Sequence record: OQ689735.1
DNA: 64,000 bases
Source of the DNA: Escherichia phage 4E10
Direction: 5' to 3' (one strand)
The notes under the pieces are model-generated. The model was not told the DNA's origin and searched no databases. It saw only the letters and a program-made list of their open reading frames with translations. Position numbers and translations under genes: made by a program. Position 1 is the stretch's first letter, and every line of letters begins with the position of its first letter. This document shows positions 1,714 through 39,240 of this stretch, piece by piece.

Positions 1714-2729
1714 TGTGTTGCCTCTACATATAGCTGGTTTGCATATTGAATAAGTGCTTCACGGTCAGAATCAGTGATGTCTGGAATTGCATTAATGTAT
1801 TCTTCCATCAACGTCTGAAGAGATTGAACTTCAACTTCTTCACTGTCATCTGACTCGACAGAGTTATCAATTTTTGACACAACTCGTAATGAATGCACAA
1901 CTTTTTCTAGTTCAGATTCGAACTTCGTTAGATTTTTGTCTACTTCAGTTACTATAACACGTACTGATAGATTTGTAAAATCTTTATAGTCAATTTTTCC
2001 TTTAAATGGATAATGAATTCTACGATGCCAGGTAGTGTTGTTTGGAATAAATTCCATTCGTTCTGTTTCTGTATCAAACATCCAGAACCCACGAGGGTCA
2101 TTCTCGTCACCTGCAGTTAGTGTCCATGGTGTCCCAATATATCTGACGTTAGCAGCCTCAGAGATAGTATGGAAGTGACCAGACCACACTTCTTTATAAG
2201 TCTTAAGGAAATCAGGTTCAAGACCATGAGATTTCATTCCTTTATAAAAATAAAATCCGTTCAGTTCCCAGTGACCAACGCAAAAAGAAGCAGATGAAGT
2301 TTTGATGTGTTCAAGAATTTCACCAGTATTTTCTTCACACATCCAAGGAATTAAATCAATTAAACATCCGTCAAAATCTACTGTAGTAGGCTTATCATAT
2401 ACTTTAACATTAGGATATTTAGCCAAAAGCTCAGTAGAGGCATTTGGAGTTAAAGTATTTTTAAAGTGCATATCATGGTTTCCTACAACAGTATGTAGGG
2501 TAATACCAGCATCATCAAGCATTTGAACTATTTCACGAGCGAACTCCATAGTTTTATGCGTGATTGCTTTTCGCACATCAAAAATATCGCCGTATTGAAT
2601 CCATGTAGTAATTCCATTTTTCTTAGAATATTCTATTGCTTGTTTAATTCCATCCAACTGAATGGATTGAACCCACTCATCATCGGCTTTAACGCCTAAA
2701 TGCCAATCACCTAAATTTAAAATTTTCAT
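1710..2729 (-). CDS. 47: Recombination nuclease gp47 (Mre11/SbcD-like)
   Basis: 339 aa starting MKILNLGDWHLG with metallophosphoesterase motifs (GDxHxG, GNHD); matches recalled T4 gp47. Confidence 0.93.
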   Translation of the reverse strand: MKILNLGDWHLGVKADDEWVQSIQLDGIKQAIEYSKKNGITTWIQYGDIFDVRKAITHKTMEFAREIVQMLDDAGITLHTVVGNHDMHFKNTLTPNASTELLAKYPNVKVYDKPTTVDFDGCLIDLIPWMCEENTGEILEHIKTSSASFCVGHWELNGFYFYKGMKSHGLEPDFLKTYKEVWSGHFHTISEAANVRYIGTPWTLTAGDENDPRGFWMFDTETERMEFIPNNTTWHRRIHYPFKGKIDYKDFTNLSVRVIVTEVDKNLTKFESELEKVVHSLRVVSKIDNSVESDDSEEVEVQSLQTLMEEYINAIPDITDSDREALIQYANQLYVEATQ

Positions 2730-2890
2730 ATATCAAGAACCGTCATTGAAATGCAAAATAAAATTATTGAAATAAACCCATCTGGTGTGCTAAAGAACCC
2801 AATCCAACATGCTCTAGTGAATAGATAAAATGCGAGAAAAAGTATCACATATCCAAGAAATATCATTATATCAAACTCCGTATAAAGCTA

Positions 2891-2906
2891 AAGGGCCGAA
2901 GCCCTT
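2891..2906 (-). terminator. UUCG-tetraloop hairpin after agt (weak terminator or RNA-stability element)
   Basis: AGGGC-TTCG-GCCCT on the minus transcript directly after the agt stop; no clear U-tract. Confidence 0.35.
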
Positions 2907-4108
2907 TATTTTGTAATAATGTCAAACTGTTCTTTAAAGCAGAAGCTTGAATCTTGATGCTGATACAAAAATTCATATGCTTTTTCTCGCTCACGGTCAT
3001 AAAGAGCTCGGTCAGATGACAGTTCTTTAATACGCTCAAATGTTGATTCCATATCATTTTCATCAAACCAAATGATACCGCTATCATGCGAGGTCAAAGG
3101 AGTATTATCAACACGGAATTTTAAATTTTCGCCAGTAGATTTCCAGAAAACAGGAATTGTTCCACATGCACCAAGCTCGAGATGAGTATATTCTAAAGAA
3201 CGTTGTAGATATTTTTTATCCAACTTACTCAACTGATAACCAAAACCGGATTTACTCATACGTTCAAGCATTTCGCTATTTACATAACGGTCAAGAATTT
3301 GCGTTGGCAAATTAGGAGCAATTTTAATTTGGTCTACTTGATGAAGACGATAATACTCGTATGGAATTCCTTTTTCTTTAATAGGAATGAACGCTGGAGA
3401 ACGTTCCAGACCTTCCATAATAGTACTTAGTCCTGCAGGTTTAAGATGTTTTTCATGAAAATCAAACATCTGATAAAAACCTTTCCATGTAGTCGTGCGA
3501 CCAATCCAACGGTTGATATTCATGTTAATTTCAGAAACATCTTTCCAGTAGGTTGACCGAACCTTCGCAATATCCATAGGAGGCTGAAAGTTATATACGG
3601 TCGGTGCTTCTTCAATATCATCAAACAGAGAAACAGTTTCTGGATACCATTCTTTCATCAGAACTTTATTAAAATCGCCATTATCAGAATGGCTAAAAAT
3701 AACATCAGCTCGACGAACAGTTTCTTCTAATCCCAAATTTCGACGCAAAGAAAGAGAAGAATGGTCATGTTGATAAACTACAACACGAACAGAAGGTTTA
3801 ATGTTATCAATAATTTTTTTATAGTTATTAATAGTGTCTTCTTCAACCGAAGTAGCAGGAACTGAATTGATAATTAGAATATCACAATCATTTACCAGCT
3901 TAAGTGTTTTATCATATTCTTTTGCCAATAAAACCGGAATTGAAAATGATTTATAATCATGCGCGCAATTACGAGTAAATGATTTATCTTTAGCATAAAC
4001 CAAAGTTACTTCATGACCATTCTTAATAAACCAATCACGTTGCTCAAGAGAAAATTTAGTTACACCACAACCTTCAAGACCTCGAGCCATAAAAATACAT
4101 ACTTTCAT
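2906..4108 (-). CDS. agt: DNA alpha-glucosyltransferase
   Basis: 400 aa, MKVCIFMARGLEGCGVTKFSLEQRDWF...; near-identical to recalled T4 Agt with scattered substitutions. Confidence 0.9.
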   Translation of the reverse strand: MKVCIFMARGLEGCGVTKFSLEQRDWFIKNGHEVTLVYAKDKSFTRNCAHDYKSFSIPVLLAKEYDKTLKLVNDCDILIINSVPATSVEEDTINNYKKIIDNIKPSVRVVVYQHDHSSLSLRRNLGLEETVRRADVIFSHSDNGDFNKVLMKEWYPETVSLFDDIEEAPTVYNFQPPMDIAKVRSTYWKDVSEINMNINRWIGRTTTWKGFYQMFDFHEKHLKPAGLSTIMEGLERSPAFIPIKEKGIPYEYYRLHQVDQIKIAPNLPTQILDRYVNSEMLERMSKSGFGYQLSKLDKKYLQRSLEYTHLELGACGTIPVFWKSTGENLKFRVDNTPLTSHDSGIIWFDENDMESTFERIKELSSDRALYDREREKAYEFLYQHQDSSFCFKEQFDIITK

Positions 4109-6883: not shown

Positions 6884-7177
6884 TCAGCTGTAACGATAAC
6901 ACTCGTTTGATTTACGTTTAGCAACTCGTTGAGATGTATTATAATCTAATTCATCGTCGATGTAAACATCTTTTTTCAACTTTCTCACTTCATTACGTAA
7001 TTGACGATTTAATTCATTCTTAACCTCTGAATCAACACCTCGCATACGTCGCCATTTATCTGAACGAAAAATGTTTTCAACCATATCTTTATGACTTACA
7101 CCATCAGGAGCTTTACGCTTTCCGAAATAGTCATAATCACGTACTTTTAAATCTTTACGACGATACGTTTTACCCAT
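6884..7177 (-). CDS. Hypothetical basic protein
   Basis: ORF track 6884..7222; start trimmed to internal ATG (MGKTYRRKDLKV) to avoid overlap. Confidence 0.45.
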   Translation of the reverse strand: MGKTYRRKDLKVRDYDYFGKRKAPDGVSHKDMVENIFRSDKWRRMRGVDSEVKNELNRQLRNEVRKLKKDVYIDDELDYNTSQRVAKRKSNECYRYS

Positions 7178-7352
7178 GGAGTTTAATTTCCTTAGCAACT
7201 GAACTAAATACAGCACGGTCACAAATCATGTGTTTATGTAACTTAAGTATAATATAGCAAACTTCAAAACTATTTACATGAGTAACACGAACAGCATTAC
7301 CATTAATAAAATAATACTGTCCCTTTTTAATTTCTTTATCAACCACAACCAT
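7170..7352 (-). CDS. Hypothetical protein
   Basis: ORF track 60 aa, first gene downstream of the early promoter at 7383-7413. Confidence 0.45.
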   Translation of the reverse strand: MVVVDKEIKKGQYYFINGNAVRVTHVNSFEVCYIILKLHKHMICDRAVFSSVAKEIKLHG

Positions 7353-7382
7353 ATCAAATCCTCAAAGGCAATTCATATGTTA

Positions 7383-7413
7383 ATAATACCACGGTTTGAA
7401 CTTGTTGTAAACA
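7383..7413 (-). promoter_or_regulatory. T4-type early promoter
   Basis: Minus strand GTTTAC, 19 nt spacer, TGG-TATTAT. Confidence 0.55.
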
Positions 7414-7480
7414 ACTTTGTGAAAATATTTTAGGGAATGACAAGAAGGGAACGATAGCTTAGAATGGTAATATACAGAAT

Positions 7481-7505
7481 GCGAGAAAGAAAGGCCCAGA
7501 GGGCC
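7481..7505 (-). terminator. Rho-independent terminator downstream of nrdH
   Basis: Minus strand GGCCC-TCT-GGGCC followed by TTTCTTTCT. Confidence 0.5.
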
Positions 7506-7509
7506 CGTC

Positions 7510-7833
7510 TTAATCTTCTATGATATCTCTATCATATCCAAGTGAAATGAGAGTTTCTTTGAAGTGTTTAATGTTCTTTTGCCTAGAATCATTAATGAAA
7601 ATGACCGGATACCGAATATTAAGAGATGTGAATCCGGCGCGTTTGGCAAGAGATACAATCAGTGGACGATCATACTCAATCTTACCATTATTAGTAAGAA
7701 CTTTATAGAAAGTAAAAGGAGCATTGAGCTCCTTTAGAAGTTTTGTAACTGATTGACATCCAGGACAACGACCTACTTCATCTGGAATTCCATAGACTTC
7801 AATCTTATTCTTTAAGTTCGAGTTTTGTTCCAC
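7510..7833 (-). CDS. nrdH: Glutaredoxin/NrdH-like redoxin (CxxC thioredoxin fold)
   Basis: KIEVYGIPDEVGRCPGCQSVTKLL motif; ORF track extends to 7962 but a GTG at 7833 has an AAGGAA site 9 nt upstream. Start is uncertain. Confidence 0.55.
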   Translation of the reverse strand: MEQNSNLKNKIEVYGIPDEVGRCPGCQSVTKLLKELNAPFTFYKVLTNNGKIEYDRPLIVSLAKRAGFTSLNIRYPVIFINDSRQKNIKHFKETLISLGYDRDIIED

Positions 7834-29586: not shown

Positions 29587-30060
29587 TTATTTGAATGATT
29601 TGACGTACTGAATAGAACCTTTACTATTCACAAAGGCAATTTTACCATTTTTGTTATACATGGTAGCAGTACGCTGATAGCCATAAGTTTGTTTACCAGA
29701 TTGATAACCAACTAATGCAAAATTATCTTCGCCCATTTTATTCTGCTTAGCGCGGATACGTTCATGACCGTGCGCCATAAGAACCTTAGCGTCGCCAGTT
29801 GCAATGGATCTACGAGTTTTTTCATCTTCAACTGTATTAACAAAGTCGTCAAATGAATCAAATTTAGCATGAGATTTATTATACAGTTTTCCATCTACTG
29901 CATAATTATATCCCTGTACATCCATCTCAACTTCTGTACCATCATCCAATACAGCAGTGATTTTTTGACCTTTTTTAAATTTCAAAAGATCAGTAAAAGA
30001 TTCAGCAATAATTTGAGAATTAATAGCTGCTTCAGTAATAAATTCTTGATATGTTTTCAT
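29587..30060 (-). CDS. Internal (head-packaged) protein with capsid targeting sequence
   Basis: N-terminus MKTYQEFITEA is the T4 internal-protein capsid targeting sequence; 157 aa. Confidence 0.7.
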   Translation of the reverse strand: MKTYQEFITEAAINSQIIAESFTDLLKFKKGQKITAVLDDGTEVEMDVQGYNYAVDGKLYNKSHAKFDSFDDFVNTVEDEKTRRSIATGDAKVLMAHGHERIRAKQNKMGEDNFALVGYQSGKQTYGYQRTATMYNKNGKIAFVNSKGSIQYVKSFK

Positions 30061-30069
30061 ATGTTTCCT

Positions 30070-30486
30070 TTAAATGTAAATATTTTTACCGTAATACTTG
30101 TACCAATGTGGTTTCATTAAAATTTTTTCATCAAGTCGTTGTTGACTCAATTTAATAGCTGATTTGCATGGATTATAATCATTTTTCCATTCTGCTGGAA
30201 TATCGCTGATGTCAGGAACTTCAGTATCTTTTATACTAAACCCGCGTTTTAAGCATTCCGTTATAATGTCTGATTGACGCTTTCGCAAAAATTCTAACTT
30301 ATCGTAAAAGAAAGTAACATGACCAGAACCTAAAATAAACTCGGAAGATATTTTAAAATCTTTAACCCGCTTACCATTTGCCACATGTTTACGAACTATA
30401 CCAAAAACACGCGGCAATTCACGGTATTCTGCGATTAAATGTTGATCAGCAAGTTCAGATACTAAAGTCAAATTAATACGAGTCAT
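30070..30486 (-). CDS. denV: Endonuclease V (pyrimidine-dimer DNA glycosylase)
   Basis: 138 aa, [29 protein letters not shown]...WYKYYGK; matches recalled T4 DenV. Confidence 0.93.
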
Positions 30487-33353: not shown

Positions 33354-33947
33354 TTATTTCAGAGAATTAATGTATTCCTGAACATCGGCAGAGGTAGTTT
33401 CAACCCCAGAAATATTACCGTTAAAGGTTTCAACTCGAGCAAGAGTATCTTCAATATCAACCTTAGTCAGTGCTGCAATTTCAACTACATCATCAGCAGT
33501 ACTAATTCCAAGGGCATTCGCGGCGCGAGTTTCACGGATATATTCCAATTTAACTGCAAGTTCTTGGCGAGCATCATCCAATTCAACTACTTTCTTAGCG
33601 ATTTCAATTCGCATTTCAGCATAACCATCAGCTTTAGTAGTCAACTGCTCAGCTGTTCGACGATATAGTAAACCGAGTTTAGCATGCATTGTTACATCTT
33701 GACCTTCGGAAAGAAGCTTGCGAATTTCACGCTCTTTTGATTCGGCCTGCTTATTCTTTTCGACAATAAGTTCACGAATACGCTTTTCTTCATTAATAGA
33801 TTTAACGGAAGCAGTTTTTAGATCTTTAATCTTATCAAGTAGTTTTGCTGCCGCAGCAGTATACTGTTCTTCGACAGATAGATTTTTAGCCATAGCAGAA
33901 CCAAGTTTAGTGCGAATAAACTCAACAATTTTCTTCAGTGTGTTCAT
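33354..33947 (-). CDS. Coiled-coil protein
   Basis: 197 aa, Ala/Glu/Lys-rich helical; early promoter upstream, hairpin downstream. Confidence 0.55.
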
Positions 33948-34875: not shown

Positions 34876-34911
34876 ATACCAAAAAGCCCCAACCTTTCGG
34901 TCGGGGCTAAG
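34876..34911. repeat. 36-bp perfect direct repeat, copy 1
   Basis: ATACCAAAAAGCCCCAACCTTTCGGTCGGGGCTAAG, identical to 35435-35470. Confidence 0.85.
34880..34908 (-). terminator. Rho-independent terminator (repeat copy 1), with a second hairpin at 34858-34873
   Basis: Minus strand AGCCCCGACC-GAAAGG-TTGGGGCT followed by TTTTTGG. Confidence 0.65.
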
Positions 34912-34915
34912 AATG

Positions 34916-35389
34916 TTATTTGATTTGTTTAGCAGACCAAATGCGGTCTTTAATAATTTTTTGGATGTCTTCAACATACTCAAGAGAGTGAGCATGTGGG
35001 TTATCTTTGAAACTATAAGCACGAGCTAGCTTTTGGCCTTCAGTTTTGATTACTAAAAGCTCTTTAAGGATAGCTTCATATTTGGAGATAATTCCTTTAA
35101 CAATATTTTTTTCTTGTGCAGCTTTAGGATCTGCTTTAGGAGCAGGTTTACCCGAAGCCTTTGCAAAAGCAGCGCCAGTAGCAACTAGACTTTTCCAGGC
35201 CATACTAACCGCATTTCCTGTAAATCCTTCTGCTTTCATGTCGCGAGCAAATTGGAATCGCGATTCGTCAGAAGCATCTTTATAAGAATATTTACCCGCT
35301 GCAATGGCTGCTTTTGCAACAGCTTGAATTTCGGTGCTAGATGCTTCATTTAACACCGCTTCATTTAAAAATTGAGTATATGATTTCAT
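34916..35389 (-). CDS. Internal-protein-like protein with capsid-targeting-sequence-like N-terminus
   Basis: N-terminus MKSYTQFLNEAVLNEA resembles the capsid targeting sequence of ipI (MKTFKEFTS) and of 29587-30060; Ala/Lys-rich; late promoter upstream and terminator downstream. Confidence 0.6.
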   Translation of the reverse strand: MKSYTQFLNEAVLNEASSTEIQAVAKAAIAAGKYSYKDASDESRFQFARDMKAEGFTGNAVSMAWKSLVATGAAFAKASGKPAPKADPKAAQEKNIVKGIISKYEAILKELLVIKTEGQKLARAYSFKDNPHAHSLEYVEDIQKIIKDRIWSAKQIK

Positions 35390-35429: not shown

Positions 35430-35437
35430 TATTTATA
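35430..35437 (-). promoter_or_regulatory. Late promoter for the gene at 34916-35389
   Basis: Minus-strand TATAAATA about 40 nt upstream of the ATG, immediately after a terminator. Confidence 0.55.
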
Positions 35438-35470
35438 CCAAAAAGCCCCAACCTTTCGGTCGGGGCTAAG
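35435..35470. repeat. 36-bp perfect direct repeat, copy 2
   Basis: Identical to 34876-34911; the pair flanks the gene at 34916-35389. Confidence 0.85.
35439..35466 (-). terminator. Rho-independent terminator (repeat copy 2) closing the candidate ncRNA locus
   Basis: Identical hairpin and U-tract to copy 1. Confidence 0.65.
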
Positions 35471-35776
35471 CCTTGCGGCAACCTTGTCGGGGTTCCACCT
35501 GCTAAGGCAAGTGTTTGTACGAAACGCCGGGATTCGAACCCGGTTATTAAGCAGTTGACGCTACTCAATATTTTTAAAAGGCCATATCTCGACCATATCC
35601 GAACGTTCCGTCAAAAACGCTACTCGACTTACGGCAAAGATATTTCCTCGAATCGATAATTCGGTGCGCCGTTTCTGCTGTGATGTAAGAGGGCATCAAT
35701 AAACGCAAAGATTATTAACGCAATTCCTTACTCAGGGAACATCAGTCCGACGACTTACCGGTAGCGACCCGGTTTC
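35471..35776 (-). ncRNA. Candidate stable structured RNA locus (tRNA-like T-arm and acceptor elements); possibly analogous to T4 small stable RNAs
   Basis: 306 bp with no ORF of 60 aa or more on either strand, between a CDS stop and a terminator; minus strand contains CCGGG-TTCGAAT-CCCGG followed by CGTTTCG, which can pair with CGGAACG about 60 nt upstream. Confidence 0.35.
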
Positions 35777-36127
35777 TTAATATTCTTTTAAAGCATCAAT
35801 CTGTTTACGGCGTTCACGCCATAAATCAATTGCTTCATACGCGGATTCAGCATTTCGAATTGGACGGCATTTATATAAAGACTTGTGATTTTGATATTGC
35901 GTAGATAACGGAATTTTATCTAAAAGGTCTTTACGTTCAAAGTATTCGTAACCATCTAAGCCAAATGAACGATTTTTGAGAAATTGCCAATGACCATATT
36001 CGTTTTCGACATAAACATAATCCGCGTGTTGATAAAGCAAATTAATTACACGTTCAGAAATAATAGTGTCATTGTGATTAAAATAAAATGTTAAATCATG
36101 AACTACTAAATAAACATTACCTTTCAT
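35777..36127 (-). CDS. Hypothetical protein
   Basis: ORF track 116 aa, immediately downstream of tRNA-Arg. Confidence 0.5.
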   Translation of the reverse strand: MKGNVYLVVHDLTFYFNHNDTIISERVINLLYQHADYVYVENEYGHWQFLKNRSFGLDGYEYFERKDLLDKIPLSTQYQNHKSLYKCRPIRNAESAYEAIDLWRERRKQIDALKEY

Positions 36128-36143: not shown

Positions 36144-36219
36144 TGGTCGAGGCAGTAGGGATCGAACCTACGACCTAGGACTTAGAAGGTCCTTGCTCTT
36201 CCTTCTGAGCTATGCCCCG
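36144..36219 (-). tRNA. tRNA-Arg (anticodon TCT)
   Basis: Hand-folded cloverleaf: 7-bp acceptor, D-stem GCTC/GAGC, anticodon stem AGGAC/GTCCT, loop CTTCTAA, T-loop TTCGATC, CCA encoded. Confidence 0.8.
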
Positions 36220-36223
36220 TAAT

Positions 36224-36299
36224 TGGGGTGACCGATGGGAGTCGAACCCATGACTACGAGAATCACAATCTCGAGTTCTACCAACTGAACTACGGCCAC
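36224..36299 (-). tRNA. tRNA-His (anticodon GTG); no encoded G-1
   Basis: Perfect D, anticodon (CGAGA/TCTCG) and T stems; loop TTGTGAT; discriminator C73; residue -1 is U rather than G. Confidence 0.65.
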
Positions 36300-36412
36300 A
36301 TTAATACCTACTCCAACAATCAAGATGTCTTCACACGAAATTAAGAGAAGAGTGATCAGTTCAACCCTATAATCGCGTCAAGTAGATATTAATGTGACAG
36401 TTGTCACAAATT

Positions 36413-36487
36413 TGGCGGACGTGATAGGATTCGAACCTATAACCAATCGCTTAACAGGCGATCGCTCTGCCATTGAGCTACACATCC
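36413..36487 (-). tRNA. tRNA-Asn (anticodon GTT)
   Basis: Clean cloverleaf: anticodon stem ATCGC/GCGAT, loop CTGTTAA, T-loop TTCGAAT, discriminator G, CCA encoded. Confidence 0.75.
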
Positions 36488-36491
36488 AAAT

Positions 36492-36578
36492 TGGTGGGGA
36501 GTGATGGAGTCGAACCACCCGAGTCGCAATGACAATGAATTTACAGTCCACACCGCTACCTCTACGGGATAACTCCCC
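36492..36578 (-). tRNA. tRNA-Tyr (anticodon GTA), long variable arm
   Basis: 87 nt; acceptor GGGGAGT/ACTCCCC; loop CTGTAAA; anticodon stem has two G-U pairs; variable-arm stem GTC/GAC. Confidence 0.6.
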
Positions 36579-36591
36579 TTAATTCTTAATT

Positions 36592-36666
36592 TGGTGGCCC
36601 TGGGTGGAATTGAACCACCATCTGGCGATTATGAGTCGCTTGCTTGAACCTTCCAGCTACAGGGCC
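36592..36666 (-). tRNA. tRNA with CAT anticodon (Ile-lysidine type by T4 analogy, or elongator Met)
   Basis: Acceptor GGCCCTG/CAGGGCC, loop CTCATAA, T-arm GGTGG-TTCAATT-CCACC; sits where T4 has tRNA-Ile. Confidence 0.7.
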
Positions 36667-36667
36667 T

Positions 36668-36743
36668 TGGTGCTGATTGACGGAATCGAACCGCCGACCT
36701 TCTCATTACAAGTGAGTTGCTCTACCTACTGAGCTAAATCAGC
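36668..36743 (-). tRNA. tRNA-Thr (anticodon TGT)
   Basis: Cloverleaf with loop CTTGTAA, T-loop TTCGATT, CCA encoded. Confidence 0.8.
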
Positions 36744-36748
36744 AAAAC

Positions 36749-36838
36749 TGGCGGAGGCGATAGGATTTGAACCTATGAGTCGCCGGAGCGACTGCCGGTT
36801 TTCAAGACCGGTGCATTAAACCACTCTGCCACGCCTCC
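36749..36838 (-). tRNA. tRNA-Ser (anticodon TGA), long variable arm
   Basis: 90 nt, GGAGGCGTGGCAGAGTGG...CCGGT-CTTGAAA-ACCGG; matches recalled T4 tRNA-Ser. Confidence 0.85.
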
Positions 36839-36840
36839 AG

Positions 36841-36914
36841 TCTCCATACAAGGATTTGAACCTTGGACCTCCTGATCCCAAATCAGGCGCTCTACCAAAC
36901 TGAGCTACACGGAG
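36841..36914 (-). tRNA. tRNA-Pro (anticodon TGG); 3' CCA not encoded
   Basis: Loop TTTGGGA; acceptor CTCCGTG/TATGGAG; only 2 nt separate it from tRNA-Ser, consistent with the known T4 Pro-Ser dimeric precursor. Confidence 0.8.
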
Positions 36915-36924
36915 TAAATTAAAT

Positions 36925-36998
<74 letters not shown>

Positions 36999-37003
36999 AA
37001 ATT

Positions 37004-37090
37004 TGGTGCGAGAAGTGGGACTCGAACCCACAAGGAAATCATTCCGCAGCATTTTAAGTGCTGTGCCTTTACCAATTTGACCATTCTCGC
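37004..37090 (-). tRNA. tRNA-Leu (anticodon TAA), long variable arm
   Basis: GCGAGAATGGTCAAATTGGTAAAGGCACAGCACTTAAAATGCTG...; matches recalled T4 tRNA-Leu. Confidence 0.85.
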
Positions 37091-37091
37091 G

Positions 37092-37164
37092 CTGGGAATA
37101 AAGGACTCGAACCTTTGCATCCTGGAATCAAAATCCAGTGCCTTACCAACTTGGCTAATTCCCA
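37092..37164 (-). tRNA. tRNA-Gln (anticodon TTG); 3' CCA not encoded
   Basis: Loop TTTTGAT with stem CTGGA/TCCAG; U1-A72; abuts tRNA-Leu with a 1-nt spacer (Gln-Leu dimeric precursor as in T4). Confidence 0.8.
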
Positions 37165-38195: not shown

Positions 38196-38483
38196 TTACA
38201 AAAGATTTTTAGCAATAATCTTGAGATGTGCCGCAGAAATGTGTTTAGCTTTAAACAACGCAGTTTCTTCAGCAGGAGAGATAATGATTGTAGCACCATC
38301 CTTTTTAGCAGACCACCCATCACCTAGGTAAACAGTACCTTTGATTTCTTCGCCATCAACCAAGCTAATCATTGGTTTACCTTCTCGTCCTTTATTTGCT
38401 TTAATAACTTCAGAAGTAAGAGTAGCTTCAGTAATAGTAGAAACCGGGGTAGTTGTAGAAGTAAACTCTTTGAAAGTTTTCAT
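38196..38483 (-). CDS. ipI: Internal protein I (head-packaged; anti-restriction in T4)
   Basis: 95 aa, MKTFKEFTSTTTPVSTITEATLTSEVIKANKGREGKPMISLVDGEEIKG...; matches recalled T4 IPI. Confidence 0.9.
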   Translation of the reverse strand: MKTFKEFTSTTTPVSTITEATLTSEVIKANKGREGKPMISLVDGEEIKGTVYLGDGWSAKKDGATIIISPAEETALFKAKHISAAHLKIIAKNLL

Positions 38484-38513
38484 TTTATTTTCCTAATTAA
38501 TTTTGATGAGATA

Positions 38514-38543
38514 ATAGTATCACTACCTCATCAGCATGTAAAC
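38514..38543 (-). promoter_or_regulatory. T4-type early promoter upstream of ipI
   Basis: Minus strand GTTTAC, 18 nt, TACTAT. Confidence 0.5.
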
Positions 38544-38555
38544 AACTTTGTGAAA

Positions 38556-39240
<685 letters not shown>

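Follow-up and report, generated by a model that had tools for sequence, protein, structure and literature searches.

The 157-aa protein encoded on the minus strand of Escherichia phage 4E10 ([GenBank:OQ689735.1]), at positions 34916-35389, is probably an unannotated internal protein (Ip) of the T4 type, that is, one that is packaged in the head and injected. Positions are those of the window, meaning the whole stretch of 64,000 nucleotides that was analysed, which comes from a Tequatrovirus (T4-like) phage. A preliminary description of this DNA had proposed an internal protein from the resemblance of the N-terminus, MKSYTQFLNEAVLNEA, to a capsid targeting sequence (CTS), and the comparisons below support that reading at the level of sequence. 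The family is probably a further member of the known Ip class and shows nothing unexpected for that class. Packaging of the protein in the head by means of the targeting sequence appears quite likely. By analogy with other Ips, the chances that the protein has an anti-defence role are roughly even; that its target would be a type IV restriction enzyme can be put forward only tentatively, as the less probable case, and the link to GmrSD is an analogy only.

Identity and distribution of the gene

The open reading frame has exactly the limits, strand and length first given for it. [quoted passage not shown] The predicted precursor (17.2 kDa, pI 9.5) is rich in Ala (17.2%) and Lys (13.4%), in agreement with the earlier characterization. 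A 2.2-kb stretch around the gene matches 753 phage records at up to 96% identity. By tblastn, the gene itself is present in 511 phage records, 467 of them full length and mostly at least 95% identical, and phage vB_EcoM_NBG2 encodes an identical protein. Among six orthologues, dN/dS is 0.02-0.14, which indicates purifying selection and therefore a functional protein-coding gene. The feature at 34916-35389 is a real gene.

In nearly all of the 511 records the gene is annotated as 'hypothetical', and PHROG 2280, which matches the protein over residues 1-157 (E=2.2e-60), is a family without assigned function. Calling the protein unrecognised was thus fair. Sequence searches of Pfam, NCBIfam and PDB returned no match, and no paralogue was found within the window. 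A HMMER profile search of the whole library gave 13 matches, all of them T4-like phages or fragments; the intact relatives belong to T4-like phages of Klebsiella, Yersinia, Serratia and Cronobacter or to metagenome contigs. One depositor labels the homologue in a Klebsiella phage (KPKp) 'Internal head protein', a label that derives from BLAST/Artemis annotation, not from experiment.

A repeat-flanked cassette with its own late promoter

The gene lies between two copies of a 36-nt exact direct repeat, 559 bp apart and found nowhere else in the window. Each copy consists of a hairpin (10-bp stem, GAAA loop, -20.3 kcal/mol) and TTTTTGGTAT. The upstream copy (35435..35470, minus strand) holds the intrinsic-terminator hairpin of rnaC at 35444-35467; the downstream copy (34876..34911, minus strand; hairpin at 34885-34908) is the gene's own terminator. 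The upstream border, outside the cassette, is the homologue of rnaC (species 1 RNA; 35518..35656, minus strand), recognised by near-identical alignment to the annotated T4 rnaC. Rfam has no family for rnaC, and an Rfam search of the cassette found nothing. The annotations of RB32 and RB14 list this ORF as 'hypothetical', with a 34 bp imperfect direct repeat flanking it.

The claim that the gene has its own late promoter was borne out at the sequence level by an exact match to the T4 late-promoter box, TATAAATA, at 35430..35437 (minus strand), 41 nt 5' of the ATG and overlapping the 3' end of the upstream repeat. The window as a whole shows no enrichment of such boxes (13 against an expectation of 10.7); this copy counts because it directly follows a terminator and is conserved across genera. 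It is kept in RB32, fD1, RB27, Bas37 and Klebsiella phage KpV477, and Mosigvirus RPN187 has AATAAATA instead. The order of terminator, late box, about 40 nt, Shine-Dalgarno sequence and ATG is kept in RB32, fD1, RB27 and Bas37, and also, with a different hairpin, in the Klebsiella Jiaodavirus KpV477.

T4 represents the empty site: it has a single hairpin copy and nothing between rnaC and e.8, so that alignment reveals a clean 559-bp indel. PST is likewise empty. In three genera the order is the same, with the tRNA cluster and rnaC followed by the 157-aa gene and then by e.8/e.6. In view of this synteny, the gene has probably been at the rnaC-e.8 site for a long time, and recombination between the repeats probably removed it from T4. 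The cassette resembles the mobile promoter/stem-loop (PeSL) cassettes of T4-like phages, which are single accessory genes between repeated motifs of stem-loop and promoter (PMC2839356; PMC4122927). PeSL repeats can mediate insertion, deletion and shuffling (Arbiol 2010, PMC2839356; Comeau 2014, PMC4122927). Membership in this group was considered and rejected: PeSLs carry an early promoter and a stem-loop on both sides, whereas this cassette has a GC-rich terminator and a promoter that is of the late type and lies upstream only. The two are analogous only.

Targeting sequence and predicted processing

Codons 1-15 (35345..35389, minus strand) are predicted to encode a propeptide, made up of the CTS MKSYTQFLNE and two tandem putative sites for the prohead protease gp21, LNE10/A and LNE15/A, so that the processed reading would be MKSYTQFLNE/AVLNE/ASS (slashes mark predicted cleavage). 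The prediction draws on motif search, comparison with Ips, the mutational map of the CTS, conservation in distant homologues and a low model confidence (pLDDT 55-63).

There are three lines of evidence for this leader. First, the CTS of IPIII is MKTYQEFIAE, and mutagenesis assigned targeting mainly to residues 4 and 7 and processing to residues 8 and 10 (PMC9026906). The 157-aa protein keeps all four positions, as Y4, F7, L8 and E10, which upholds the resemblance first noted; the two proteins then used for comparison are also as described, namely IPI (MKTFKEFTS, 38196-38483) and the protein at 29587-30060 (MKTYQEFITEA), which is Ip4. Second, MKT[YF].EF is common to 12 of 12 known Ip N-termini (T4 IPI, IPII and IPIII; RB32 Ip4, Ip5, Ip7 and Ip9; PST IpV and IpVI; Bas37_0260 and Bas37_0261; fD1 g146). 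The allele in the window departs conservatively from the canonical T3 and E6, having S3 and Q6. When the pattern was widened post hoc to admit these two residues (^MK[ST][YF].[EQ]F), it matched 3 of the 595 Met-started ORFs of at least 40 aa in the six frames of the window, namely IPI, Ip4 and the 157-aa ORF, with a roughly estimated chance expectation of about 0.002; orthologues that begin with MKTYNEFLNE fit the strict form. Third, homologues from phages of Klebsiella, Yersinia, Serratia and Cronobacter, with identity as low as about 25-40%, still carry the motif M..[FY]..F[LV].E[AG], including those with a swapped C-terminal domain. In full-length distant relatives this motif stands immediately ahead of the first folded helix, and all distant homologues have aromatic residues at positions 4 and 7. 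That a short leader is retained while the proteins otherwise diverge is the strongest argument from sequence for a functional leader.

Prediction of prohead-protease cleavage, one of the checks proposed at the outset, yielded two sites of the gp21 type L-x-E/A, L8-N9-E10/A11 and L13-N14-E15/A16. Known gp21 sites likewise end in Glu, such as ITE-6 and LTE-619 in Alt (PMC5694885) and LIE-9 in gp21 (PMC9026906; PMC5694885).

Predicted fold and domains

The AF2 model of the protein is all-helical, with a mean pLDDT of 77. Residues 1-17 are modelled as a flexible leader, 18-75 as a three-helix domain, 76-87 as an Ala/Pro/Lys linker and 88-154 as a helical hairpin. The N-domain (residues 16-75; 35165..35344, minus strand), with the conserved pattern AGKYSYKD..DESRFQFARDMKAEGF.GN.V..AWKS, was delimited by alignment, by a pLDDT of 80-90 and by tblastn matches that span residues 4-72, and it is common to the homologues in Klebsiella, Yersinia and Serratia phages. 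In the linker (residues 76-87; 35129..35164, minus strand) the pLDDT falls to 54 and no secondary structure is predicted. The C-domain (residues 88-157; 34919..35128, minus strand) is basic (pI 9.6), and in the Klebsiella and Yersinia phage homologues a different, unrelated domain takes its place. Fold and profile searches with the 157-aa protein returned no function and no hint of an inhibitor.

Shortened alleles of 61-111 aa also occur (KpV477, 2495-2731; P0006, P0008, P0014, P0016 and P0025). Their leader and N-domain are intact, and the reading frame closes within the linker or shortly beyond it; in KpV477 the remainder of the gene runs on in another frame. These alleles may reflect repeated frameshifting or errors of sequencing, or they may encode functional proteins reduced to the N-domain.

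Detection in virions

Yersinia phage fD1 ([GenBank:HE956711]) encodes an orthologue, g140, that is 99.4% identical to the 157-aa protein. LC-MS/MS of purified fD1 virions lists g140 as particle-associated at a strict threshold (Table S3, PMC8309999), and the known head proteins g129 (Ip4) and g146 (IPI-like) are listed likewise (PMC8309999). The preparation is of low specificity, with 113-137 of the 277 gene products listed (41-49%), including rIIA and gp57A (PMC8309999). Presence in the virion, by which the internal-protein proposal was to be judged, is therefore borne out in part: the orthologue is on the list, but the list is a permissive one. We consider that this detection raises the odds of packaging modestly, about threefold as a likelihood ratio. 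The fD1 search covered fully tryptic peptides only; the N-terminal peptides predicted from gp21 cleavage are AVLNEASSTEIQAVAK or ASSTEIQAVAK. The orthologue ORF129 was not detected in CsCl-purified virions of SH7, an absence that is uninformative because that survey was shallow (14 proteins) and recovered no Ip at all. For HY01 virions, five gel bands were analysed, and the hypothetical protein among them goes unnamed in the text. There is no virion proteome for fPS-2.

The protein might instead be a late cytoplasmic one that is not packaged, its leader being inherited from a cassette ancestor or serving another purpose and the fD1 signal being carry-over. The many non-structural proteins in the fD1 preparation and the absence of the orthologue from the SH7 survey would fit such a protein. 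We give it only a small chance, since the exact targeting and processing positions are conserved between genera, whereas the remainder of the protein diverges or is exchanged, and since the 10-residue CTS alone suffices to package foreign proteins (PMC9026906). A CTS-bearing protein made late should, for the latter reason, enter the proheads.

Even less probable, and in our estimate very much so, is that the protein belongs to the prohead core or scaffold as an accessory component and is broken down by gp21 into small peptides at maturation, as gp22, gp67 and gp68 are, with nothing functional injected. The model, all-helical with a coiled-coil-like C-domain, is compatible with such a component, as is an extra internal L-K-E motif at residues 108-110. 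This motif, however, lies inside a confidently predicted helix. Moreover, mature fD1 virions yielded tryptic peptides that passed the strict threshold (PMC8309999), and the gene is dispensable and missing from T4, which has the same head.

Comparison with known internal proteins

IPI, IPII and IPIII of T4 resemble the 157-aa protein in having a CTS and an L/I-x-E/A site, in being small, basic, rich in Lys and dispensable, and in being encoded by variable cassettes. All the traits by which T4-type Ips are defined at the sequence level are present and conserved in it. Beyond the first 10-11 residues there is no similarity to them, and the locus is different. The predicted fold also differs, being all-helical with two domains, whereas IPI* is a compact alpha/beta protein (PMC3012670). 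Known Ips likewise have nothing in common with each other except the leader.

Ip4 to Ip10 of the T-even phages were reportedly described by Repoila in 1994. RB32 Ip4, Ip5, Ip7 and Ip9 and PST IpVI have leaders like that of the 157-aa protein, and RB32 Ip7 and Ip9 are, according to the RB32 annotation notes, repeat-flanked cassettes that may be present or absent, like the gene described here. The genes for Ip4-Ip10 lie at the ipI locus (57B to tRNA.4) or at the ipII/III locus (e to denV); the 157-aa gene lies between rnaC and e.8. The annotators of RB32 and RB14 systematically flagged similarity to named Ips and left the 157-aa ORF unflagged. Of the named Ips, IPI-IPIII, Ip4-Ip7 and Ip9 were compared by sequence; the distinction from Ip8 and Ip10-13 is a presumed one. 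More than 30 IP variants are known from Comeau 2007, as cited in PMC2839356, and the 157-aa family may already be among them, going by that secondary mention.

On ECOR17 IPIII is required, and a form expressed without the CTS is active too. Ip1, Ip2 and Ip3 each block a different GmrSD type IV restriction enzyme, and ip4-10 were tested against GmrSD variants without a match (PMC12373910). The targets of Ips extend beyond GmrSD: Bas37_0260, which is PST IpVI or Ip6, is described in the HIDEN-SEQ preprint as an injected inhibitor of McrBC (10.1101/2025.11.20.689424). This CTS-bearing protein comes from the same phage, Bas37 (KarlGJung), as the orthologue bas37_0244, whose numbering was confirmed by counting TA sites.

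According to the same preprint, 29 of 34 TA sites in bas37_0244 were disrupted and the gene was called non-essential (10.1101/2025.11.20.689424). Relative to K-12, its disruption caused no significant change on CFT073 (log2FC -0.11) or CFE299 (-0.30), and the authors do not name it among their hits (10.1101/2025.11.20.689424). Disruption of Bas37_0260 costs fitness on K-12 BW25113 (McrA, McrBC, Mrr), whereas disruption of bas37_0244 does not. In that setting, bas37_0244 is therefore dispensable in the face of McrBC, McrA and Mrr.

Given these data, it is worth weighing a packaged protein with no dedicated host target, whose role would be that of an unspecific, basic and Lys-rich companion of the DNA in the head, either neutralising charge or aiding packing and ejection. 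We regard this as improbable, although several observations are compatible with it. The predicted mature form has a pI of 9.6 and 14% Lys, and by solid-state NMR only the lysines of internal proteins contact DNA phosphates (PMC3012670). There is no host-specific phenotype of bas37_0244 in the comparison of K-12, CFT073 and CFE299, and the gene is under strong purifying selection, whereas a rapid arms race would be expected to diversify the protein surface. However, many relatives, including T4 and PST, do without the gene. Every Ip with a tested function had a specific target (PMC12373910; 10.1101/2025.11.20.689424), and the conserved N-domain, folded in the model, suggests a specific interaction.

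Our preferred reading, an injected internal protein, would work as follows. The gene would be transcribed late, as a single-gene message from its own TATAAATA promoter, bounded on both sides by rnaC terminator hairpins. The first 10 residues of the 17-kDa precursor would serve as the CTS and dock on the scaffolding core of the prohead, as the motif and, in part, the fD1 mass spectrometry suggest. Cleavage by gp21 after Glu10 and/or Glu15 would then leave a basic, two-domain helical protein of about 15.5-16 kDa in the head together with the DNA. As with other Ips, this protein may be ejected with the DNA and act ahead of all phage gene expression. On the analogy of Ip1-3 with GmrSD variants and of Ip6 with McrBC, it would most probably bind and block a defence enzyme that only some hosts possess.

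Internal proteins are the first phage molecules to act in the infected cell. Every Ip tested since 2022 (Ip1, Ip2, Ip3 and Ip6) has proved to inhibit, specifically, a host nuclease directed against modified phage DNA. The 157-aa family occurs in roughly two thirds of the sequenced genomes of T4-like coliphages, including therapy candidates and typing phages such as AR1, PP01, HP3, wV7 and RB32. T4 itself lacks it, and this probably explains why the family has received no study.

The rnaC-e.8 site as a possible third internal-protein locus

At rnaC-e.8, RB14 carries a different ORF of 187 aa (RB14ORF136, 7100-7663 of the RB14 sequence examined), which begins with MKTYAEFLTEA and is found in 165 phage records. 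The 187-aa gene occurs instead of the 157-aa gene or in tandem with it. Tandem arrangements are found in Bas37 (where the 187-aa gene is bas37_0243, 2529-3092 of the Bas37 sequence examined), HP3.1, EC.W14-2 and ChristianSchoenbein, and each of the two genes is then followed by a hairpin ending in TTTTTGGTAT. The matching site in the window is the junction near 34876-34911. RB14ORF136 resembles the 157-aa protein in its leader, its layout (N-domain, Pro/Lys linker and helical C-terminus) and its locus. The PHROG 2280 profile matches both proteins over their full length, as well as a Klebsiella phage homologue; BLASTP and hhalign comparisons of the 157-aa and 187-aa proteins detected similarity only in the first 10-11 residues.

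Because it holds zero, one or two leader-bearing cassettes, the rnaC-e.8 site behaves like the classical ip loci and, judged by sequence comparison, as a third internal-protein locus. T4-like phages have been described as having 'two highly variable IP loci' (Arbiol 2010, PMC2839356), and rnaC-e.8 is neither of them. A broader proposal would be that rnaC-e.8 is the third Ip locus of the Tevenvirinae, holding zero to two PHROG-2280 cassettes whose injected products counter defences other than GmrSD and McrBC. We offer it as a speculation that is rather more likely to fail than to hold.

In the Bas37 transposon library, only 1 of 48 TA sites in bas37_0243 was hit, and the gene was called 'Essential', a call that the authors do not discuss (10.1101/2025.11.20.689424). 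The same method also produces known false essentials, namely inh, hoc and wac. If both the call and the broader proposal hold, a member of the class can become indispensable in some phage-host pairs. The 157-aa family and its neighbour at the same site are two abundant candidates for injected anti-defence factors, and recognition of them enlarges the map of places in which such factors may be sought.

Other features near the gene

Several neighbouring features of the window are of interest in their own right. About 1 kb downstream of the 157-aa gene lies the orthologue of e.6 (33354-33947, minus strand), corresponding to bas37_0240 in Bas37. In the HIDEN-SEQ data, bas37_0240 is strongly depleted on the uropathogenic strain CFT073 (log2FC -6.49, adjusted p 0) and not on CFE299, and the authors built a deletion plasmid for it. 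The e.6 orthologue is a candidate host-specific anti-defence gene.

On the other side, a 116-aa ORF (35777-36127, minus strand; PHROG 3355, no known function) lies between tRNA-Arg and rnaD. These two are adjacent in T4, which makes this ORF another indel. Its orthologues are SH7 gp130 and bas37_0245, the latter non-essential in Bas37. The tRNA cluster (36144-37164, minus strand) has 11 genes, compared with 8 in T4, and includes tRNAs for His, Asn and Tyr and one with a CAU anticodon; no segB homing endonuclease lies inside it. ARAGORN assigns the CAU-anticodon tRNA to Met, whereas T4 annotates its own CAU-anticodon tRNA as Ile.

At the position of T4 ipII and ipIII, the window has a single gene, Ip4 (region 29587-30486, minus strand). 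The order is e, then denV (30070-30486), then Ip4 (29587-30060), which starts 10 nt past the denV stop codon without an exact TATAAATA before it. Upstream of ipI (38484-38560, minus strand) there is an element resembling a T4 early-type promoter, TTTACA-17-TACTAT, and no exact late box. The early-type element before ipI contrasts with the clean late promoter of the 157-aa gene.
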